Source: Escherichia coli
GTDB taxonomy: Bacteria; Pseudomonadota; Gammaproteobacteria; Enterobacterales; Enterobacteriaceae
Strand: one strand, 5' to 3'
Length of the DNA stretch: 64,000 bases
Assembly (NCBI RefSeq): GCF_003018255.1
Contig: NZ_CP027440.1
The stretch's first letter is position 1. Each line of letters begins with the position of its first letter. The notes beneath the pieces were generated by a model. That model was given only the letters and a program-made list of their open reading frames with translations, searched no databases and was not told the origin of the DNA. Shown in pieces: positions 655-25,600 of the stretch. A program made the translations under genes and the position numbers.

Positions 655-2064
655 TCACTCCATCCCCAGCTCTTTTAACTTCCGCGTCAGAGTGTTACGC
701 CCCCAGCCGAGTAGCCGCGCCGCTTCCTGTTTATGCCCTTGCGTATGTCGCAACGCGGTCGTCAGTAACGTCCGCTCCAGCTCAGGCTGCGCTTCGGAAA
801 GCAGATTTTGATGACCGGAACGCAGCGCTCTGTCTGCCCACTGCGCTAAAAGTGTCGCCCAACTGTCCGGTTGCATTTGAGAAGTACTCTCCGCAACCGT
901 TGATTCAAACAGTTCACCGGGCAAATCCTGAATCAACACTTCCTGCCCGGCGGCCATCACCGTTAGCCAGCGACAGGTGTTTTCCAGCTGGCGCACGTTC
1001 CCCGGCCACGCCAGGCGCGTCAGCGCGGCTTCGGTTTCCGGATGCAGCAACTTCGCTTCTACGCCCAGTTCGCGCGCGGCAACCTGTAAAAAATGGCGTG
1101 CCAGACGGGGAATATCTTCCCGACGCTCACGCAGTGGCGGCAGATGAACGCGGATGACGTTCAGGCGGTGGAACAGATCCTCACGGAACTTACCTTCCTG
1201 CACCCGCTGTTCAAGATTCTGGTGAGTGGCAGCGATAATCCGCACATCTACTTTCACCGGCGCATAGCCGCCAACGCGATAAAACTGACCATCTGCCAGT
1301 ACGCGCAGCAAACGCGTCTGCACATCCAGCGGCATATCGCCAATTTCATCGAGGAATAATGTGCCACCATCAGCCTGTTCAAAACGCCCCTGACGAATGG
1401 TATTCGCGCCGGTAAATGCGCCTTTCTCGTGACCAAACAGTTCGGATTCGATCAAATCCTTCGGGATAGCCGCCATATTGAGCGCGATAAACGGCGCTTT
1501 GGCTCGCGGACTGTGGCGATGCAGGGCATGAGCGACCAGTTCTTTACCGGTGCCGGACTCGCCGTTAATCAGCACGCTAATAGAAGAACGCGAAAGCCGA
1601 CCGATAATCCGGAACACGTCCTGCATGGCTGGCGCTTCACCGATGATATCGGTCGTTGGGCCGTTAAGCTGAACATTACGCGGCTGCTGCTGTTCCTGGT
1701 AATGACTGATGGCGCGCTCAACCAGCGCCACGGCTTCGTCGATATCAAACGGTTTGGGCAGATAATCAAATGCCCCTTGTTGATAGGCGCTGACGGCAGC
1801 ATCCAGATCGGAATGTGCGGTCATAATGATGACCGGAAGCATCGGATGGCGCTGTTTAATCTGCTTGAGCAGCGCCAGCCCGTCCATTCCCGGCATACGG
1901 ATATCTGAAAGCAGCACATCCGGCGTTTTGCTCGCCAGCGCCTCCAGTACCTCCGCGCCGTTCTCAAATGTTGTACAGGTTAAACCCGCTCCAGCGAGCG
2001 CACGTTCAAGCACCCAACGGATGGAACTATCGTCATCGACTACCCAGACTATCCCTCGTTGCAT
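655..2064 (-). CDS. glnG: Nitrogen regulation response regulator NtrC (NRI), sigma54 activator, 469 aa
   Basis: ORF 655..2124; start placed at internal Met ([23 protein letters not shown]...) giving 469 aa; receiver, AAA+ (GESGTGKE) and HTH domains. Confidence 0.93.
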
Positions 2065-2075
2065 AAACGTCACCT

Positions 2076-3125
2076 TTATTTCCTGATAGGCAGGTAAACC
2101 GAGAACTCGGTATGACCTGGCCAACTGGTAAATTCAATTTTGCCTGAATGCTGATCAATCAAATTACGGGCGATGGATAAGCCAAGCCCGGTGCCACCTT
2201 CGCGGCCGCTGACCATCGGGTAAAACAGCGTATCCTGCAAATGAGGCGGAATACCTGGCCCGTTATCTTCCACATCAATTCGCGCCGCCAGCCGATAGCG
2301 CTCGCCGTGTAAGGTCAGTTGAAACGCTGTGCGGGTACGCAGAATGATTTCACCACCCTCCGGCCCCAGCGCCTGTAGCGCATTGCGCACAATATTCAGC
2401 AAGACCTGTTCAATTTGATCCGGGTCGTGCGCCAGTTCCGGCAGGCTGGGGTCGTAATCCCGAATCAACCGCACGTTGTCCGGCAGTTCCATCGACACCA
2501 GCGTCACCACGCGTTCAGCTACTTTATGAATACTTTCGGTAACGCGCGTACCGGGCAGTTGCGGTCCCAACAGACGGTCGACCAGATTTCGCAGCCGGTC
2601 CGCCTGTTCGATAATCACTTTGGTATATTCGAGTAGTGACGGGTCAGGTAATGCTTTGCTGAGCAGCTGCGCCGCGCCACGTAAACCGCCAAGCGGATTT
2701 TTAATCTCATGTGCCAGGCCGCGCACTAAATCACGGGCAGCAACCTGCTGGGCGTGCTGTAGCTGTTCCTGACTTAAGCGGCGCTGGTTATCCATCGGTG
2801 CCATCTCCAGCAGGATCATGCCGTCCGGCATACGCTGGGCCGTCACAGAAAGGATATGCGAGCGCCCGTCGATGACCAGCGTCACTTCGTTATCAGTAAA
2901 ACCTTGCCCCGCCTCCAGACTTTCTTGCATCAGCTCGATATTTAATGAGAAGTAGCTCAACAGTTCCGGTAACGGTGTACCAAACAATTTGCGGGAGCTT
3001 TGGGCGAGCAGTTGTTGCGCGGCGGGGTTGGCGTAATGGATCGCCAGGTTGTCATCGATTAACAAAATACTGTTAATCAGCGAGTTGAGGATCTGCCCAG
3101 CATCGGGCTGCGTGCCTGTTGCCAT
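2076..3125 (-). CDS. glnL: Nitrogen regulation sensor histidine kinase NtrB (NRII), 349 aa
   Basis: ORF-track peptide [25 protein letters not shown]... with H-box HEIKNPLGG; 11-nt gap to glnG. Confidence 0.93.
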
Positions 3126-3213
3126 AAAGCAGTCTCCTGAACAGGTTGCACCATTTTAGTGCATTATAGCTTTTTACGGATAAAAAGCGCGAAGCATCAG
3201 AGAATTGACGGAG

Positions 3214-3238
3214 AAAAAAGCCCATGCAGAGATGGGCT
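3214..3238 (-). terminator. Rho-independent terminator of glnA (hairpin gcccatctctgcatgggc followed by a T-run on the minus strand)
   Basis: Plus-strand aaaaaag-cccatgcagagatgggc read at 3214-3237. Confidence 0.6.
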
Positions 3239-3298
3239 GAAAGTTTCCACGGCAACTAAATCCCGGCGTTGTTGCGCCGGGTAGTACAACTTCAACTA
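3214..3298 (-). ncRNA. glnZ: glnA 3'UTR, candidate 3'UTR-derived sRNA (GlnZ-like)
   Basis: Region between the glnA stop and its terminator; 3'UTR-derived sRNAs from glnA are described in enterobacteria; no structure-level confirmation here. Confidence 0.3.
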
Positions 3299-4708
3299 TT
3301 AGACGCTGTAGTACAGCTCAAACTCTACCGGGTGCGGAGTCATACGCACGCGGTCATCTTCTTCGCGACGCAGAGCGATGTACGCATCGATCGCTTCATC
3401 AGTGAACACGCCACCGGCTTTCAGGAACTCACGGTCCAGATCCAGTTCGTTCAGTGCTTCTTCCAGAGAACCAGCAACCTGTGGGATCTCTTTCGCTTCT
3501 TCCGGCGGCAGGTCATACAGGTTTTTGTCCATCGCTTCGCCCGGATGGATCTTGTTCTTGATACCGTCAAGACCGGCCATCAGCAGGGCAGCAAAGCACA
3601 GGTACGGGTTAGCCGCCGGGTCCGGGAAACGTACTTCGATACGACGTGCTTTCGGAGAAGAAACCACTGGAATACGGATAGACGCAGAACGGTTACGCGC
3701 AGAGTAAGCCAGCATTACCGGTGCTTCGTAGCCCGGGACCAGACGCTTGTAAGAGTTGGTGGTCGGGTTTGCCAGGGCGTTAATCGCTTTCGCGTGTTTG
3801 ATGACGCCGCCAATGTAGTACAGCGCCTGTTCAGACAGACCTGCATATTTGTCGCCCGCGAACAGGTTAACGCCATTTTTAGCCAGCGACATATGGCAGT
3901 GCATACCGGAGCCGTTATCACCGAACATCGGTTTTGGCATAAAGGTCGCGGTTTTACCGAAGCGGTGCGCTACGTTGTGCACAACATATTTGTAGATCTG
4001 AATTTCGTCAGCTTTTTTGGTCATGGTATTGAAGCGGGTAGCCACTTCGTTCTGACCAGCAGTCGCTACTTCGTGGTGATGGGCTTCAACCACCAGACCC
4101 ATCTGTTCCATCACCAGACACATTTCAGAACGAATATCCTGAGCAGAGTCTACCGGCGGAACCGGGAAGTAACCGCCTTTCACTGCCGGACGGTGACCTT
4201 TGTTACCACCTTCGTATTGGGTGGAGGAGTTCCATGCGCCTTCGATATCGTCGATAGCAACGTGAGAACCGGAGATAGATGATCCGAAACGGATGTCATC
4301 GAACAGGAAGAATTCAGGTTCTGGCCCGAACAGTACGGTGTCGGCAATGCCAGTGGAACGCAGGTAATCTTCGGCGCGCTTCGCAATAGAGCGCGGGTCA
4401 CGGTCATAGCCTTGCAGGGTGCCAGGTTCAAGGATGTCGCAACGGATAATCAGGGTAGAATCGGCGAAGAACGGGTCAATCACTGCGGTGGATGCGTCTG
4501 GCATCAGCACCATGTCGGATTCGTTAATGCCTTTCCAGCCGCCAATCGAGGAGCCGTCAAACATTTTGCCTTCTTCGAAGAATTCAGCATTCACCTGATG
4601 AGCAGGGATAGTGACGTGCTGTTCTTTACCTTTGGTATCGGTGAAGCGCAAATCAACAAACTTCACTTCGTGCTCGTTCAGCATCGTCAGTACGTGTTCA
4701 GCGGACAT
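3299..4708 (-). CDS. glnA: Glutamine synthetase, 469 aa
   Basis: ORF-track peptide [35 protein letters not shown]...; ATG read at 4706-4708. Confidence 0.97.
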
Positions 4709-8920: not shown

Positions 8921-10186
8921 ATGCTCACGAAAAAGAAATGGGCGTTATTTAGTCTATTAACATTGTGTGGCGGTACAATTTATAAATTACCGTCTCTGAA
9001 AGATGCGTTTTATATCCCGATGCAGGAATATTTCCATTTGACCAATGGTCAAATTGGTAATGCTATGTCGGTAAACTCATTTGTCACCACAGTGGGCTTT
9101 TTTCTGTCTATTTATTTTGCCGATAAACTACCGCGCAGATACACCATGTCATTCTCACTCATTGCGACAGGATTACTGGGTGTTTATTTGACGACAATGC
9201 CGGGGTATTGGGGCATCCTCTTTGTCTGGGCGCTATTTGGCGTTACTTGCGACATGATGAACTGGCCGGTCTTGCTCAAGTCGGTAAGTCGATTGGGCAA
9301 TAGCGAACAACAAGGTCGGTTGTTTGGCTTCTTCGAAACAGGGCGTGGCATTGTCGATACCGTGGTGGCATTTTCTGCGTTGGCAGTATTTACCTGGTTT
9401 GGCAGTGGCTTATTGGGTTTTAAAGCAGGCATCTGGTTCTATTCCCTTATTGTGATTGCCGTAGGCATTATCATTTTCTTTGTCCTGAATGACAAAGAAG
9501 AGGCACCGTCCGTTGAGGTGAAAAAAGAAGACGGAGCATCGCAAAACACCAGTATGACCTCGGTGCTGAGAGATAAAACCATCTGGCTTATCGCTTTCAA
9601 CGTCTTCTTCGTTTACGCGGTTTACTGTGGCCTAACATTCTTCATTCCATTCCTGAAAAACATCTATCTATTGCCCGTTGCTCTGGTGGGGGCTTACGGC
9701 ATCATTAACCAATACTGTCTGAAAATGATTGGAGGACCGATTGGTGGCATGATTTCAGATAAGATCCTGAAATCGCCGAGTAAATATCTATGCTACACCT
9801 TTATCATAAGTACCGCTGCGCTCGTACTGTTGATTATGCTGCCGCACGAAAGTATGCCGGTCTATTTAGGGATGGCATGTACGCTGGGCTTTGGCGCTAT
9901 AGTCTTCACACAGCGAGCCGTATTTTTTGCACCTATCGGCGAAGCAAAAATTGCTGAAAATAAAACAGGCGCGGCGATGGCGTTGGGTAGCTTTATTGGT
10001 TACGCCCCGGCGATGTTCTGCTTCAGTCTGTATGGCTACATTCTGGATTTAAATCCGGGGATTATTGGCTACAAAATCGTGTTTGGCATTATGGCCTGCT
10101 TCGCATTCTGTGGTGCGGTGGTTTCCGTAATGCTGGTTAAGCGTATTAGCCAACGTAAGAAAGAGATGCTGGCGGCTGAAGCTTAA
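8921..10186 (+). CDS. yihN: MFS transporter, 421 aa
   Basis: Polytopic membrane protein; position and length match K-12 YihN. Confidence 0.85.
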   Translation: MLTKKKWALFSLLTLCGGTIYKLPSLKDAFYIPMQEYFHLTNGQIGNAMSVNSFVTTVGFFLSIYFADKLPRRYTMSFSLIATGLLGVYLTTMPGYWGILFVWALFGVTCDMMNWPVLLKSVSRLGNSEQQGRLFGFFETGRGIVDTVVAFSALAVFTWFGSGLLGFKAGIWFYSLIVIAVGIIIFFVLNDKEEAPSVEVKKEDGASQNTSMTSVLRDKTIWLIAFNVFFVYAVYCGLTFFIPFLKNIYLLPVALVGAYGIINQYCLKMIGGPIGGMISDKILKSPSKYLCYTFIISTAALVLLIMLPHESMPVYLGMACTLGFGAIVFTQRAVFFAPIGEAKIAENKTGAAMALGSFIGYAPAMFCFSLYGYILDLNPGIIGYKIVFGIMACFAFCGAVVSVMLVKRISQRKKEMLAAEA

Positions 10187-20410: not shown

Positions 20411-20844
20411 TTGCATTAATTCAACGCGTAACCCGTGCCAGCGTCACCGTGGAGGGAGAAGTGACGGGCGAAATTGGCGCGGGACTTTTGGTGTTATTGG
20501 GTGTCGAAAAGGATGACGACGAACAGAAAGCAAACCGTCTGTGCGAGCGTGTGCTCGGCTACCGCATCTTTAGCGATGCCGAAGGCAAGATGAATCTCAA
20601 CGTGCAACAGGCGGGCGGCAGTGTACTGGTGGTTTCCCAGTTTACCCTTGCCGCAGATACCGAACGGGGGATGCGTCCAAGTTTCTCCAAAGGTGCATCA
20701 CCGGATCGCGCAGAGGCGTTATATGACTATTTCGTCGAACGCTGCCGTCAGCAAGAGATGAACACGCAAACAGGACGCTTCGCTGCGGATATGCAGGTAT
20801 CGCTGGTCAATGATGGCCCCGTGACATTCTGGTTGCAGGTATGA
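20407..20844 (+). CDS. dtd: D-aminoacyl-tRNA deacylase, 145 aa
   Basis: ORF-track peptide [19 protein letters not shown]...; 4-nt overlap with yihY. Confidence 0.93.
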
Positions 20845-21830
20845 GCCAGCTTCCAGGGTTGTCACGGGAAACAAGAGAGAGTATCGCTATGTATCACCTT
20901 CGGGTTCCACAAACAGAAGAAGAATTAGAGCGTTACTATCAGTTTCGCTGGGAAATGTTGCGTAAGCCCCTGCATCAACCGAAAGGTTCGGAACGCGACG
21001 CGTGGGATGCGATGGCGCATCACCAGATGGTCGTCGACGAGCAGGGTAATCTGGTGGCGGTAGGCCGACTGTATATTAATGCCGACAATGAAGCGTCCAT
21101 TCGCTTTATGGCCGTTCATCCCGACGTGCAGGACAAAGGGTTAGGAACGCTGATGGCGATGACCCTCGAATCTGTGGCGCGTCAGGAAGGTGTTAAGCGC
21201 GTGACCTGTAGCGCCCGCGAAGACGCGGTGGAGTTTTTCGCCAAGCTGGGGTTTGTTAATCAGGGAGAAATCACCACGCCAACCACCACGCCGATTCGCC
21301 ATTTTTTGATGATTAAACCCGTTGCCACTCTGGATGATATTTTGCATCGCGGCGACTGGTGCGCGCAGCTGCAACAGGCGTGGTATGAACACATCCCGCT
21401 GAGTGAAAAAATGGGCGTGCGCATTCAGCAATATACCGGGCAAAAATTTATCACCACCATGCCGGAAACAGGCAATCAGAATCCGCATCACACGCTGTTT
21501 GCCGGGAGTTTATTCTCGCTGGCAACGCTCACCGGTTGGGGGCTTATCTGGCTGATGCTGCGCGAACGCCACCTCGGCGGAACGATTATTCTGGCGGATG
21601 CGCATATCCGCTACAGCAAGCCGATTAGCGGCAAACCTCATGCGGTAGCCGACCTTGGTGCCTTAAGCGGCGATCTCGACCGTCTGGCGCGCGGACGAAA
21701 AGCACGGGTGCAGATGCAAGTAGAAATCTTTGGCGACGAGACGCCGGGTGCAGTGTTTGAAGGCACGTATATCGTTCTGCCCGCGAAGCCATTTGGCCCG
21801 TATGAAGAGGGCGGGAACGAAGAAGAGTAG
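20841..21830 (+). CDS. yiiD: GNAT acetyltransferase / thioesterase-domain protein YiiD (FabY), 329 aa
   Basis: ORF-track peptide; 4-nt overlap with dtd. Confidence 0.88.
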
Positions 21831-21847
21831 GGGCGTTTTACTTGACT

Positions 21848-21876
21848 GAAAAGGTTTTCAATCTGAAAACCTTTTC
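21848..21876. terminator. Bidirectional hairpin terminator between yiiD and the esterase gene (gaaaaggttttcaatctgaaaaccttttc)
   Basis: Inverted repeat read directly between the two convergent stops. Confidence 0.6.
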
Positions 21877-21893
21877 TGGGCCCTGGTCCGGAG

Positions 21894-22877
21894 TTACCTT
21901 CCCGCTCTCCAGGCAACATCCCGTAGCGCCGATCGCGCAGCCTCGCTGATACCACCTAACTGAAAAAATCCGTGGATAACGCCAAGGTAGCGTTGGCAGG
22001 TGCATTGCACTCCTTGCCCTGTCATGCGGTGATACAACGCTTCACCTTCATCGCAAAGTGGGTCGTATTCAGCGGTAATGATATGTACAGGTGGCAAGCC
22101 ATTGAAATCATCGCGCCAAAGAGGGCTGGCTTCAGGATGCCTGCGTTCAATGCCTGGCAGGTACATCTCAAAGCCGCTCAGTAAAGTGTCGCGTGTGATG
22201 ATGTAATCGTGACCATTGCGTATGTAGCTTTCGAAATGCGCAGTCGCATCAAGCATGGGATAAATTAAGATGAGTTGTGCTGGTTGCCACTCGCCAGCAC
22301 GCTTCAATCGCAAAGCAGTTACCAGCGCCAGATGCCCTCCCGCACTGTCACCGGCAAGAGTTATTCGTTGTTTATCAACGCCGAGTCGTTCGGCGTGTTG
22401 CCGGACTAATTCTGCACCTCGTTGTGCATCATCATGGGCGGCGGGGAAAGTATGTTCCGGTGCCAGCCGATACTGGACGGCAATAATCCGACATTGCCCG
22501 TAATAGGCTAACTGGCGCAGCTGGTTGTCGTGAGTTGCGAACCCGCCGCTAACAAAACAGCCACCGTAGTAATAAATTATCGTCGGGAGTAATGTCGGGG
22601 CATTCAGCGGTGACACTATTCGTAAGGTCATCCCTTCAAGTTCGATAGTCTGAATATCTACCCGCGTTTCTGTCTCACCCGCAAGGACAGCGCTGGCGAT
22701 ATAGCCCTCTCTGCGCTGCGTAATACTTTGTTGGCGCGATGAGGGGCGACCCGCAGCGATAAACTCTTCGACTAACTCTGCAATTCCTTTTTCCAGTGCC
22801 ATAGTAGAACTCATTTTGCTGTATGAATGTACAGTTTTATACACCCGTTTTTGCTGGATGGATACAGGGAAATTCAC
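21894..22877 (-). CDS. Alpha/beta-hydrolase, hormone-sensitive-lipase (Aes-like) family carboxylesterase, up to 327 aa
   Basis: GDSAGG nucleophile-elbow motif; ORF starts at a GTG (22877), first in-frame ATG at about 22814. Confidence 0.75.
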   Translation of the reverse strand: MNFPVSIQQKRVYKTVHSYSKMSSTMALEKGIAELVEEFIAAGRPSSRQQSITQRREGYIASAVLAGETETRVDIQTIELEGMTLRIVSPLNAPTLLPTIIYYYGGCFVSGGFATHDNQLRQLAYYGQCRIIAVQYRLAPEHTFPAAHDDAQRGAELVRQHAERLGVDKQRITLAGDSAGGHLALVTALRLKRAGEWQPAQLILIYPMLDATAHFESYIRNGHDYIITRDTLLSGFEMYLPGIERRHPEASPLWRDDFNGLPPVHIITAEYDPLCDEGEALYHRMTGQGVQCTCQRYLGVIHGFFQLGGISEAARSALRDVAWRAGR

Positions 22878-22976
22878 GGGCGTGAAAAATCTGGAAAGCG
22901 CCTCGCAAATGTAAAGACAAACCCGGCAGAGACGTGGTTTTGCTGGAGCACTATCAGTAAGCTAGTGGTTTCAAGG

Positions 22977-22993
22977 GTACGTCAATGACGTAC
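22977..22993. promoter_or_regulatory. Perfect 17-bp palindrome (gtacgtcaatgacgtac) upstream of the toxin-antitoxin pair; candidate operator
   Basis: Read directly; lies between the divergent esterase gene and the toxin gene, upstream of a TATAAT at 23024-23029. Confidence 0.4.
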
Positions 22994-23030
22994 AAAAAGG
23001 ATTGTTACTCTAAGCCAATGGCGTATAATT

Positions 23031-23342
23031 ATGCTCTTCATCGAAACGGAAATTTTTACTGAAGATGTTCAAAAACTGCTGACCGACGATGAATTCAGTC
23101 GTTTTCAGTTTTTCCTGGCCTTGAATCCTGACTATGGTGAGGTAATACCTGAAACTGGTGGGTTAAGAAAGGTTCGATGGGTGTCAGGAGGAAAGGGGAA
23201 ACGTGCTGGTGTCAGGGTTATTTACTTTCATCAGGTTAAACATTATGAGATCAGATTACTGCTTATTTATCGTAAGGGTATTAAAGATGATCTGTCTCCC
23301 CAGGAAAAAGCAATGCTCCGGTTGTTAAATACGAGGTGGTAA
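23031..23342 (+). CDS. RelE/ParE-superfamily (HigB-like) type II toxin, 103 aa
   Basis: Small basic protein (MLFIETEIFTEDVQKLL...) immediately followed, with no gap, by an XRE-family HTH gene. Confidence 0.6.
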   Translation: MLFIETEIFTEDVQKLLTDDEFSRFQFFLALNPDYGEVIPETGGLRKVRWVSGGKGKRAGVRVIYFHQVKHYEIRLLLIYRKGIKDDLSPQEKAMLRLLNTRW

Positions 23343-23633
23343 ATGGATAAGGCACTTTTTGAGCGGTTGACTCACAGCATGGCCCAGATGAATGAAATTA
23401 TTGAAGGAACGCGACAGCCTTCGCGGACTTTTGAAGTTGATGCTATGAAAATCAAAGAAATACGCCGCGCTTCAGGGTTGTCACAATCTAAATTTGCCGA
23501 TCTTATTTCTGTAAGCGTAGACACGTTGCGTAACTGGGAGCAGGGGCGACGTTCACCGACCGGGCCTGCAAAGGCTTTGCTGCGAGCGATTGCCAATGAT
23601 CCGCAACATGTGCTGCAAGCACTTAACCGTTAG
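23343..23633 (+). CDS. XRE-family HTH antitoxin (HigA-like), 96 aa
   Basis: HTH (IRRASGLSQSKFADLISVSVDTLRNWEQG); start codon abuts the toxin stop (tggTAAATGg). Confidence 0.6.
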   Translation: MDKALFERLTHSMAQMNEIIEGTRQPSRTFEVDAMKIKEIRRASGLSQSKFADLISVSVDTLRNWEQGRRSPTGPAKALLRAIANDPQHVLQALNR

Positions 23634-24237
23634 AGGCATGGTTATGCCATACAGAAAGCACCAGCATTCAGAACTCCTGTGAAAGCGGCGTAGTGCCACC
23701 TGCTCAGGAGTTTTGCTATGACCCGTAATCGTGCTGACCGTTGCCACCCTATGATGCGATTAAAAAAACTCATCGTCGCGCCGATGATTGACGTCAATGC
23801 TATCGGATGATACCGGGGGTGTTCCGGAAGGAATTCCTTGTTTCCCGAACTGTTACCAACAAAATTATAACGATAAGCAAGTAAAGACCGGTTGGTGGCA
23901 GTACTGACCGGTCTGTGATGGATGATTAATTTCACCTTAAATCCTGGTGCTGTTAGGATGCTGACATTTTTCGGCTACACCATTCAGATTATGCAAATAA
24001 AGATCCAATCAAAAGATAAATATCCCTGAATATAATATATTTATAGCACCCATATCTCATCCTGGGCGATAACCCAACCATTTTTGATTAACAAATGAAA
24101 CAACTGCAACGTTCTTATTATTTCTGGAAAACGTCTCGCAAAAACAAAACAGCATGCAAAAATCCGCTTTTTTTAAATGATTTTTCGGCGTAATTTTCGC
24201 ACATACATTAATGAGTAATATATGTAAGGTATTGGTA

Positions 24238-24456
24238 ATGGCGATGAATACGGTTTTTCTTCATTTATCAGAAGAGGCAATTAAACGGCTGAACAAGCTT
24301 AGGGGCTGGCGTAAGGTTTCACGATCTGCAATTTTACGCGAAGCGGTTGAGCAATATCTGGAGCGGCAGCAATTTCCGGTGCGTAAAGCAAAGGGTGGCA
24401 GGCAAAGGGGGGAGACAGTAGTTGTTGATGATCAGTGTAAGGAGCATAAGGAATGA
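24238..24456 (+). CDS. yiiE: Ribbon-helix-helix (CopG-like) small regulator, 72 aa
   Basis: ORF 24211..24456 with start at internal Met (MAMNTVFLHLSEEAIKRLNKLRGW...); name from recollection of K-12. Confidence 0.55.
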   Translation: MAMNTVFLHLSEEAIKRLNKLRGWRKVSRSAILREAVEQYLERQQFPVRKAKGGRQRGETVVVDDQCKEHKE

Positions 24457-24670
24457 CAAAAAATTTATTATTCTTGAATATAAAAACCAGATGCCCTTAT
24501 TCTGGTATTAATACAAAGCTGTTTTACTTGAACTTATAATAACTGCAACTGTTACATCATATCTGGAAAACGCCTCGCGAAATACGAGAGATTTTGCGGG
24601 AATAGCAGGTGTCGTCATACCCTATGAACTGTAATCCGGGCGACCAGCGCCACCCGGAAAACGTCAGAGA

Positions 24671-25600
24671 TTACTCCCCTTCACCCGGAAACAGGAACGG
24701 GTTGATGGAACTACGGGCATAGCCTTCTTGCTCCATTCGCGCGTCCAGTACCAGAGAGGCGAGGTCATCTGCCACGGCTTCAACTTTCGGTTCTTTTTCC
24801 TGATAAAGAATCTTCAGGTAAGTGCCGCAGTCATCGCAGCTTTCGGCTTTAATCGCGGCCTGTTCGTCATCCAGCGACCAGTAATGCAGTTTGCCGCTTT
24901 GTTCACAGTTGCTGCATTTTACGCGTACTACGTGCCATTCAGTTTCACACAGGTTGCAGTGCAGGTAACGCAGCCCCTGAGTGGTGCCAATTTGCACCAT
25001 GCTGGACACCGGCATAGAACCACAAACCGGGCAATATTGACGTTGTTCGCCATATTCCGCACGCGCTTTGCCGGGGATCAGATTGGCCATCTGCGCCCAG
25101 TAGAGCGACAGTGCAGCCCAGATAAACGGCGCTTTATCGCTGCTGACGGACGAGAAATCAGAGGCAAACAGTGCGCTGGCCATATCTTCCAGCTCCTGAG
25201 TCGATGCCTTCTCCAGATTCTCAATCACTGCCAGCGCCGGGCCGCTCATTTCAGGTTTCAGCTCAGCAATCAGCGCCATCAGCAGCTTTTGCCAGTGCTT
25301 ATCACGCGGCAGAACGTGAATATCCAGCGGGGGCTTGCCCTGTGCGCTGGCTTCTTTAATGCGCGCGGTCAGATCCATCTCCAGCGGATGGTCGTACAGC
25401 ACCACTTCCTGGGCGTGGGCGATAAGCGCAGCAAAGCGCAGGTAATCACCCAGCGGATTATTTTCTGCCAGCTCGCGCAGACGCTCGGCGCGGCGGTTGT
25501 ATAAATTCTTGAGCCGAGGGAACAATAACGGCGGAATCATATCCGCCGTACGTTTCTCGCTCGAACCCAGCTCATCTTGCGGGATTATGCGAATACTCAT
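24671..25600 (-). CDS. fdhE: Formate dehydrogenase accessory protein FdhE, 309 aa
   Basis: CxxC cysteine clusters ([31 protein letters not shown]). Confidence 0.93.

Follow-up and report, generated by a model that had tools for sequence, protein, structure and literature searches.

What occupies the 604 bp of DNA that separate an antitoxin gene from yiiE in an Escherichia coli strain (RefSeq assembly GCF_003018255.1, contig NZ_CP027440.1)? The interval spans positions 23634-24237 of the window, by which we mean the whole stretch of 64,000 nucleotides that was analysed, and it belongs to the chromosome segment around fabY (yiiD) and fdhE-fdoIHG. The antitoxin gene, an NCBIfam NadS member, ends at 23633, and yiiE, which encodes a ribbon-helix-helix protein (RHH_1), starts at 24238, as annotated by RefSeq in relatives. 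An earlier note on this DNA had described the interval as apparently non-coding and as either a degraded gene remnant left by an insertion event or an unannotated RNA. Its coordinates are right, and neither an intact conserved open reading frame (ORF) nor a known RNA was identified there. Our comparisons indicate that the interval is a mosaic, in which a dead two-gene cassette of mobile elements fills the upstream two-fifths (23638-23914) and is followed by AT-rich filler and then by the putative promoter region of yiiE. Wreckage plus a promoter make up the interval, which is why it is non-coding in this strain. We hold the whole explanation, namely a decayed cassette with its folded leader beside a yiiE regulatory region with a predicted CRP-S (Sxy-dependent CRP) site, with good confidence.

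The comparison that explains the upstream part is with strain NRZ14408 (L003), where the same flanking genes enclose a spacer of 1055 bp in which two hypothetical genes are annotated (70 and 92 aa), hereafter ORF1 and ORF2. Alignment of the two spacers revealed that the window lacks ~390 bp (L003 2638-3033) and also a separate 60-bp segment at 24054. The larger gap comprises the rest of ORF1, the ORF1-ORF2 spacer and codons 1-58 of ORF2, and it places a deletion junction at 23772-23773, as defined by the pairwise alignment and the blastn blocks. On the plus strand, the junction is preceded by the first 18 codons of ORF1, a gene of the phrog_4499 small-protein family (23718-23771; tblastn 72% over 18 aa, E 7e-7, and the alignment to L003). 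It is followed by about 35 codons of the 3' end of ORF2 (23774-23877), which tblastn detects in two frames with an E value of 1e-6 each, residues 59-73 at 23774-23818 (RRADD*RQCYRMIPG) and residues 73-90 at 23815-23868 (GGVPEGIPCFPNCYQQNY). This ORF2 remnant is broken by a TGA that lies in frame (23789-23791) and by a shift of frame near 23815-23818. The N-terminal basic segment of the R-A-x-R-R-H-H type is recognisable in the ORF1 remnant (MTRNRADRCHPM), with three conserved positions substituted (E7D, R9C and H11P, at residues invariant in the four-sequence alignment A2; R9 and H11 are at least 90% conserved in the 14-sequence alignment A1 of ORF1). The defining CSCWMCG motif is deleted, and the ORF at 23718-23810 has 30 codons, 18 of them homologous, where a full-length gene has ~66-95 aa and the motif. 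In likeness to the phrog_4499 proteins of T5-like phages and islands, the window retains the MTRNRA-RRHH-type N-terminal start plus the leader; with the core gone and conserved residues mutated, however, those 18 codons are a pseudogene fragment and not a member of the family.

An identical junction is present in the window, in O157:H7 DEC4E (L089), in UTAK-3 (L090) and in GPEC673 (L002), and each carries private indels, such as the extra 1-bp deletion within the ORF1 remnant of O157:H7. Because four lineages share exactly the same junction and have private indels besides, one old deletion followed by continuing decay accounts for them. In the proposed course of events, the ~390-bp deletion would have removed most of ORF1 and ORF2, and point mutations and indels would later have completed their inactivation. 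The ORF1 and ORF2 fragments bear out the degraded gene remnant of the earlier note. Its attribution to an insertion event does not stand, since the lesion is an internal deletion of ~390 bp within the cassette, itself part of a gene string that is conserved across genera.

In Klebsiella spallanzanii and Pseudocitrobacter vendiensis, this string reads fabY, a hydrolase gene on the minus strand, higB, nadS, ORF1, ORF2, a gene for a YiiF-like RHH protein and fdhE, also on the minus strand; ORF2 was detected in the Klebsiella locus and not in the Pseudocitrobacter locus. As the supposed island is common to several genera, the remnant was not made by its insertion. The window has the corresponding order: fabY (20841-21830, plus strand), an alpha/beta hydrolase gene (21894-22877, minus strand), a RelE/HigB-like gene (23031-23342, plus strand), the helix-turn-helix (HTH) antitoxin gene nadS (23343-23633, plus strand), the 604-bp gap, yiiE (24238-24456, plus strand) and fdhE (24671-25600, minus strand), and it is without yiiF. 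K-12 has only 23841-24237 of the interval (92.9% identity) and is without the hydrolase, higB and nadS genes; the order shared across genera suggests that this absence may be a loss rather than the ancestral state.

Some part of the interval is matched in 5408 of the 5426 complete E. coli genomes, at least 80% of the 604-bp short form in 2098 of them, and at least 80% of the long-form probe is covered in 1270. The nearest complete genomes, strain ST648 among them, are 99.2% identical over 21800-24700. Other E. coli strains have quite different cargos at the same site, and the fabY-yiiE locus is for this reason regarded as a replacement hotspot. One cargo, in L005 of the pair L005/L010, consists of three unrelated minus-strand genes and a REP-like array. 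In O157:H7 (L089), a 304-aa hypothetical gene abuts the same spacer, and homology to the window begins exactly at the nadS stop. A different HigB/HTH pair lies on the other strand at the fabY-yiiE gap of L091.

Could the damaged allele encode something of its own? The candidates for such an allele-specific product are a 97-aa ORF on the minus strand (23642-23935, GTG start), which the earlier note had mentioned as a weak frame and which does exist, the 30-aa truncated ORF1 (23718-23810), and a transcript ending at a minus-strand site at 23787-23770. The truncated ORF1 retains a Shine-Dalgarno sequence (SD) and the leader, and a terminator-like hairpin with a T-run is called on the minus strand at the deletion junction. 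The 97-aa ORF, however, crosses the junction, is interrupted by stops or frameshifts in four other strains that include the closest relative (L002, L008, L089 and L090) and has no Pfam or NCBIfam match, and we rejected it as a gene. In the truncated ORF1, conserved positions that do not vary in A2 are altered, and O157:H7 has a frameshift in it. None of the candidates gained support from a family, from Rfam or from a homologue, and promoter-like and terminator-like consensus matches in the interval are no commoner than in shuffled sequence. We consider an allele-specific functional product very improbable. As parts of a decayed cassette, the remnants probably do nothing now, save perhaps stopping or stabilising transcripts that read out of higB-nadS.

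What was lost can be seen where the cassette is intact. Its order there is a short upstream ORF, a hairpin that sequesters the SD, ORF1, ORF2 and a terminator. ORF1 encodes a basic protein of ~70 aa and ORF2 a protein of ~92 aa, and both are intact in ~1270 complete E. coli genomes and in Klebsiella. Intact ORF1 matches phrog_4499 with an E value of 1.2e-13. Its relatives occur in 446 phage records, the best-scoring among the matches listed being Salmonella and Escherichia phages of 104-125 kb, and the one ORF1-bearing phage record that was inspected is a Tequintavirus (T5-like). Further relatives lie at 118 genome loci from Enterobacterales to Betaproteobacteria and beyond, and an exhaustive profile search with ORF1 returned 3235 cluster representatives at E <= 0.001. 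The signature of the family is an N-terminal R-A-x-R-R-H-H helix together with an invariant C-S-C-W-M-C-G motif. For ORF1, dN/dS among the copies of Escherichia, Klebsiella and Pseudocitrobacter is 0.10-0.19, and for ORF2 it is 0.16-0.21, values comparable with those of higB (0.15) and nadS (0.06). Where intact, ORF1 and ORF2 are real genes.

ORF2 lies directly 3' of ORF1 in Escherichia, Klebsiella, Mixta, Kosakonia, Edwardsiella, Huaxiibacter, Citrobacter and a primase-bearing satellite-like contig, and, counted by genera and contexts, there are more than 10 such cases. The Yokenella ORF1 continues in frame into an ORF2-like C-terminus, as a fusion (L023 4001-4318; …GADPDGILFP…KPYVYYY); at a Citrobacter freundii locus (L028 4001-4234), ORF1 ends in …CIYYN; and Mixta carries two tandem ORF2 copies (L012 4423-4966). 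Taken together, these three arrangements suggest that ORF1 and ORF2 act together. As to what they do, searches of Pfam, NCBIfam and PADLOC found no family for ORF1, ORF2 or the 97-aa ORF, and a PDB sequence search with the ORF1 profile gave no match. The AlphaFold2 model of ORF1 (pLDDT 70, pTM 0.41, mostly helical) had no Foldseek match in the PDB, and its fold is uninformative. For ORF2, a word-indexed search found no distant homologues and a single match in a phage record. The neighbourhoods of ORF1 over 80 loci are heterogeneous, with integrases, type I restriction-modification genes, primases and a position between gyrA and serC among them, and give no functional clue. A literature search on yiiE, yiiF and the CSCWMCG motif yielded nothing useful.

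Two further observations concern the distribution of ORF1. A divergent subgroup (MGRGRAWVRHQ…) lies between gyrA and serC in four loci from Chromatiales and other Gammaproteobacterial metagenome-assembled genomes (L036, L039, L040 and L050) and is without the two-tier hairpin described below; this subgroup may represent a branch of the family that is chromosomal and not mobile. In NRZ14408 (L003 659-762), a second copy of the nadS 3' end and the ORF1 leader, 87% identical, lies by a transposase gene beyond the hydrolase gene.

Of the cassette, the leader of ORF1 also survives. A putative short upstream ORF, read from the sequence, lies on the plus strand at 23638-23682 (MVMPYRKHQHSELL and a stop); it has a second in-frame ATG at 23644, and its TGA (23680-23682) directly follows the 5' arm of a two-tier hairpin at 23669-23715 on the same strand (folding energy -20.9 to -23.2 kcal/mol, z about -3 (-2.95)). 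In the outer stem, formed by 23669-23679 and 23705-23715, the anti-SD CTCC (23674-23677) pairs with the SD of ORF1, GGAG (23707-23710). The inner stem-loop, at ~23685-23699, is weakened in the window by a mismatch. Mini-ORFs that end at the equivalent place, with one synonymous AGA/CGG arginine change, precede ORF1 at other loci (L005 MTYRKQRHSELM, L009 MMNRKFQYSELM and L011 MASRKQRHSELM, each followed by a stop), and longer homologous upstream peptides pass through the hairpin in L013, L014 and Massilia.

By our own reading of minimum free energy (MFE) folds, ~50 of 80 genome loci have the same leader architecture, separated from the start of ORF1 by 0-7 nt (up to 9), with energies of -20 to -44 kcal/mol, and 18 representative leaders have z values of -2.9 to -6.8. 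The outer arms vary in sequence and yet stay complementary (AACTCCTG/CAGGAGTT, ACTCCGA/TCGGAGT, CCTCATA/TATGAGG and TTACTCCA/TGGAGTAA). In a MAFFT alignment of the leaders the arms fell out of register, and RNAalifold gave no result on it. A covariance model derived from six leaders of the Nitrosomonadales type retrieved Betaproteobacterial copies only, and for this reason an arms-only alignment was used, in which the interior was replaced by a fixed linker and the register was anchored on the SD and the anti-SD. In this alignment (n = 29), 86% of the outer-stem cells are paired versus 67% in shuffled alignments, and the covariation score of 0.49 versus 0.18 was reached by 0 of 500 shuffles; pairing drops to 37-49% when the partner arm is slid by 1-3 columns. 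The helix between the SD and its upstream anti-SD is stable, conserved and covarying, as in an SD-sequestering leader.

A hairpin at this place could instead be the intrinsic terminator of the higB-like-nadS operon, with featureless spacer beyond it. It lies 36 nt past the nadS stop, is stable, and has a 3' arm that ends in UUUUG. This U-run, however, belongs to the stem, and a consensus terminator scan made no call here. The same structure precedes ORF1 homologues at loci without nadS, after a primase gene in L004 and after unrelated genes in L005 and L010, and it also stands before ORF1 homologues in Beta- and Gammaproteobacterial islands; it always pairs the SD of ORF1, and its outer stem covaries. 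Since the element moves with ORF1 where nadS is absent (L004 and L005), it is the leader of ORF1 and not the terminator of nadS, and we regard the terminator explanation as unlikely. The ORF1 leader in the window is, by all indications, vestigial; O157:H7 and UTAK-3 have indels in it. As for the unannotated RNA of the earlier note, a conserved, covarying, cis-acting leader hairpin does survive at 23669-23715, whereas nothing indicates a free-standing small RNA. A search of 22500-25000 with the Rfam 15 covariance models gave no match at E <= 1, and an Rfam scan of the leader in eight other loci likewise gave none.

How would such a leader work? The coupling of a leader ORF to an SD-sequestering hairpin is known from plasmid repA-tap leaders and from mok-hok. 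The ORF1 leader resembles these in that an anti-SD farther upstream pairs with the SD, the 5' arm contains the end of a short ORF or is crossed by one, and the changes in the arms are compensatory. It differs from them in having no sequence or Rfam relationship and no antisense RNA partner that we could see, and in that ORF1 is an uncharacterised basic protein with a Cys motif, destroyed in the window. To go by the geometry, the hairpin of intact copies would most likely block translation of ORF1 for as long as the anti-SD arm has not been opened by a ribosome that translates the upstream ORF, a form of translational coupling. The leader of the ORF1 homologue in the T5-like Escherichia phage APCEc03 (L092 1460-1812), which encodes 105 aa from a GTG start and lies among tRNA and small hypothetical genes, is a simpler version with only a small TCTCC/GGAGA hairpin over the SD. 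It is tempting, though tentative, to regard the upstream ORF with the hairpin as an undescribed and widespread translational switch of mobile elements, and ORF1-ORF2 as a new functional module in a string with competence-regulon sites, of which the window would hold a fossil. This suggestion is based on the ~50 of 80 sampled loci, which reach from Gamma- and Betaproteobacteria beyond, on more than 3000 cluster representatives, and on the lack of an Rfam family and of a Pfam model. If it is true, the module belongs, in Enterobacteriaceae, to a toxin-antitoxin-like string with Sxy/CRP-S sites ahead of at least two members, the higB-like-nadS operon and the RHH gene.

The downstream end of the cassette is marked by a second hairpin at 23885-23914 on the plus strand, 8 nt past the former ORF2 stop (-20.3 kcal/mol, z = -4.3; none of 200 shuffles folds as well). 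It contains the inverted repeat AGACCGGT...ACCGGTCT that the earlier note had placed at about 23884-23912, and its MFE fold is a GC-rich stem-loop with a stem of 13 pairs, which includes an 8-bp perfect inverted-repeat core, and a loop of 4 nt. The stem is followed by GUGAUGGAUGAUUAAU rather than by the U-run of an intrinsic terminator, and the terminator scan made no call. The hairpin is retained in K-12, O157 and L003, and ORF2 is followed by a GC-rich hairpin with a T-run in six other loci (L004, L009, L012, L022, L024 and L037). It is best read as the terminal hairpin of the cassette, at the position of its terminator, and its present activity is uncertain. Beyond it lies AT-rich filler (23915-24057, GC 0.355), which has strain-specific indels and no conserved ORF: a 19-bp indel is present in K-12 and UTAK-3, the 60-bp insertion of L003 falls at 24054, and the small ORFs vary between strains. 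The AT-rich tract noted earlier ahead of yiiE is real, with GC values of 0.325-0.355 over 23900-24200 against ~0.50-0.55 in the flanking genes.

The last part of the mosaic, at 24058-24237, is the 5' region of yiiE on the plus strand, delimited by blastn and alignment A3, with a putative promoter, a leader and the SD AAGG (24226-24229). Its segment 24099-24182 is paralogous to the 5' region of K-12 yiiF (L001 3178-3260; blastn 77% identity, E 7e-12). Within this segment, TGGAA-AACGTC-TCGCA at 24125-24140 (plus strand) is predicted to be a CRP-S site, as an exact consensus match at a conserved position, with its centre 105.5 nt upstream of the yiiE ATG. The E. coli CRP-S consensus is the asymmetric T4G5C6G7A8-N6-T15T16C17C18A19 (Sondberg et al. 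2019, PMC6728893, attributed there to Sinha et al. 2009), and the core TGGAA-N6-TCGCA is the reverse complement of TGCGA-N6-TTCCA. The well-conserved half-site is nearer the gene, as described for Psxy (PMC6728893).

The exact 16-bp core occurs twice in the window, at 22892-22907 (TGGAAAGCGCCTCGCA) and at 24125-24140 (TGGAAAACGTCTCGCA), where 0.22 would be expected. A longer 20-nt motif around it (TCTGGAAARCGYCTCGCRAA) has three copies in the 64 kb against 0.01 expected, all at this locus: upstream of higB (22890-22909), upstream of yiiE (24123-24142) and downstream of yiiE (24562-24581), the last being degenerate with TCGCG. The position of the site is conserved: its centre lies 102.5-105.5 nt from the starts of yiiE, yiiF and the yiiF-like RHH genes and 131.5-135.5 nt from that of higB (K-12, L003, Klebsiella and Pseudocitrobacter); in the window, the second exact core lies 131.5 nt before the higB-like start. 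In Klebsiella and Pseudocitrobacter, the motif stands at the two equivalent places while the surrounding intergenic DNA has diverged. The closest relative of the window has an IS1 inserted at 24157-24166, between the site and yiiE. A pattern scan of metagenomes found many contigs in which a minus-strand hydrolase gene is followed by the site, a vapB-like RHH gene at +111/112, an intact PIN toxin gene and fdhE. The same 19-mer occurs ~200 nt upstream of a TfoX/Sxy gene on a metagenome contig (L107), which has no blastn match in E. coli.

In the literature, a CRP-S site is found in the sxy promoter, the P1 promoter of hicAB is CRP-S dependent, and overexpression of sxy induces higBA, chpSB and hokD (PMC6728893, PMC11951105); among the toxin-antitoxin operons reported in the Sxy regulon are hicAB, higBA and chpSB (PMC11951105). 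Because such a site lies in its 5' region, yiiE is predicted to be under the control of cAMP-CRP and Sxy (TfoX). By the same logic, the higB-like-nadS operon and the yiiF of other strains would also be switched on by cAMP-CRP with Sxy, like hicAB P1 and sxy. The sites share with these CRP-S promoters the exact core, the gene-proximal conserved half-site, the position upstream of toxin-antitoxin-type genes and the occurrence of the 19-mer before a TfoX gene. They differ in that those of yiiE, yiiF and higB-like are known here from sequence alone, and in that they share ~20 identical nt, more than the consensus needs, partly since the yiiE and yiiF regions are paralogous.

The 20-nt motif might also be a sigma-54 promoter, whose TGG-N10-GC spacing it has, or a relic of a duplicated vapC 3' end. 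The second idea draws on the third copy, which runs into the last ~18 codons of a PIN/VapC gene; 24512-24631 aligns to VapC residues 84-124 (tblastn, E 1e-8). A neutral relic, however, would not keep 16-20 unchanged nt and a constant spacing to start codons across three genera while its flanks diverge, and where vapBC is intact the motif is upstream of vapB and not inside vapC. The VapC similarity of the copy upstream of yiiE is not significant (E >= 1), and a vapC origin of the repeat at 24058-24190 was dropped for want of statistical support. Against sigma-54 speaks the absence from the motif of the consensus C residues of the -24 element. Of the pattern TGGCAC-N5-TTGC only the GG/GC spacing fits, and the genomic SELEX map of K-12 RpoN has the neighbouring fdoG/fdhD spacer and nothing at yiiE or yiiF (PMC8743547), and the sigma-54 reading was rejected as well. 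That the motif is one or the other of these rather than a CRP-S site seems to us improbable.

Several points weigh against our interpretation as a whole. The silence of the remnants and the activity of the yiiE promoter are deduced from sequence. The upstream ORF may not be translated, and the covariation statistics of the outer stem are optimistic, as they come from related sequences in a register that we chose. The CRP-S assignment consists of a 10-base consensus plus conservation, and the pattern scan of metagenomes is expected to hold tens of chance matches, so that isolated hits have no weight and only recurrent gene-linked contexts count. Moreover, with its centre 105 nt away from the yiiE ATG, the site would suit a class I arrangement only if the leader, counted from a putative transcription start, is ~35-45 nt long. 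The promoter scan called no convincing -10/-35 pair near the yiiE site.

The same CRP-S-like sequence of 19 nt was also met at other places on metagenome contigs. In L132 (~9026-9352), between nrdG and cybC, it stands 66 nt ahead of a RelB/ParE pair and in divergent orientation to it. A SymE toxin gene carries it at the 3' end, upstream of a RhuM gene, in L135 (~3939-4290), and in L139 (~1833-3570) it precedes a PTS EIIBC/6-phospho-glucosidase operon by 167 nt.

On the other side of yiiE, the third motif copy (24562-24581) is degenerate and is joined, within 24457-24634, to what is left of a PIN/VapC gene, its final ~18-24 codons (...RNTRDFAGIAGVVIPYEL and a stop at 24632-24634). In Pseudocitrobacter, the yiiF-like gene is followed by an intact toxin gene with which this fragment is homologous. 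An ORF with an overlapping ATGA starts at 24453 (MTKNLLFLNIKT...) and may be the decayed 5' end of vapC. yiiE and yiiF look like orphan VapB-type antitoxin genes. The likeness to orphan antitoxin loci and decayed vapBC operons is that both encode RHH proteins, that Pseudocitrobacter and many metagenome contigs have an intact gene for a PIN toxin after a homologue of theirs, and that decay products lie on both sides of yiiE; the difference is that the remnant in the interval comes from the ORF1-ORF2 cassette and not from a toxin gene.

Upstream of the antitoxin gene, nearer to higB than the CRP-S core, a perfect palindrome (GTACGTCAATGACGTAC, 22979-22995) and a related half-site that overlaps a TTGTTA-16-TATAAT promoter-like site (22979-23029 in all) are likely the NadS operator and promoter. 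The annotated ATG of the higB-like gene (23031) lies only 2 nt past the -10 hexamer, so that one of the two assignments, start codon or promoter, may be wrong. The hydrolase ORF may start at GTG 22877 (327 aa), while RefSeq relatives have 302 aa, which corresponds to a start at 22802; the 327-aa form would leave a mere 15 nt between its start codon and the CRP-S-like site at 22892. The fabY and hydrolase genes converge on a perfect inverted repeat of 13 bp at 21848-21876 (GAAAAGGTTTTCA...TGAAAACCTTTTC), which is probably a bidirectional terminator.

The state of the interval is ordinary genome decay, an expected outcome at a hypervariable locus, and the fabY-fdhE hotspot is a clear example of alternative cargos that swap while the yiiE-proximal region is kept. 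For annotation, this means that the interval is two pseudogene fragments plus a yiiE regulatory region and not an empty spacer, and that no gene should be annotated at the 97-aa ORF. Two features deserve further study: the CRP-S sites of these antitoxin and toxin-antitoxin genes, and the leader of a very large small-protein family, an undescribed structure that is absent from Rfam. The leader hairpin offers a handle on this large and never-characterised family of phages and islands. The exact CRP-S sites at conserved distances before yiiE, yiiF and higB-like-nadS in several genera point to these genes as predicted members of the Sxy regulon, and, if that membership is true, it extends the known link of competence regulation to toxin-antitoxin loci.

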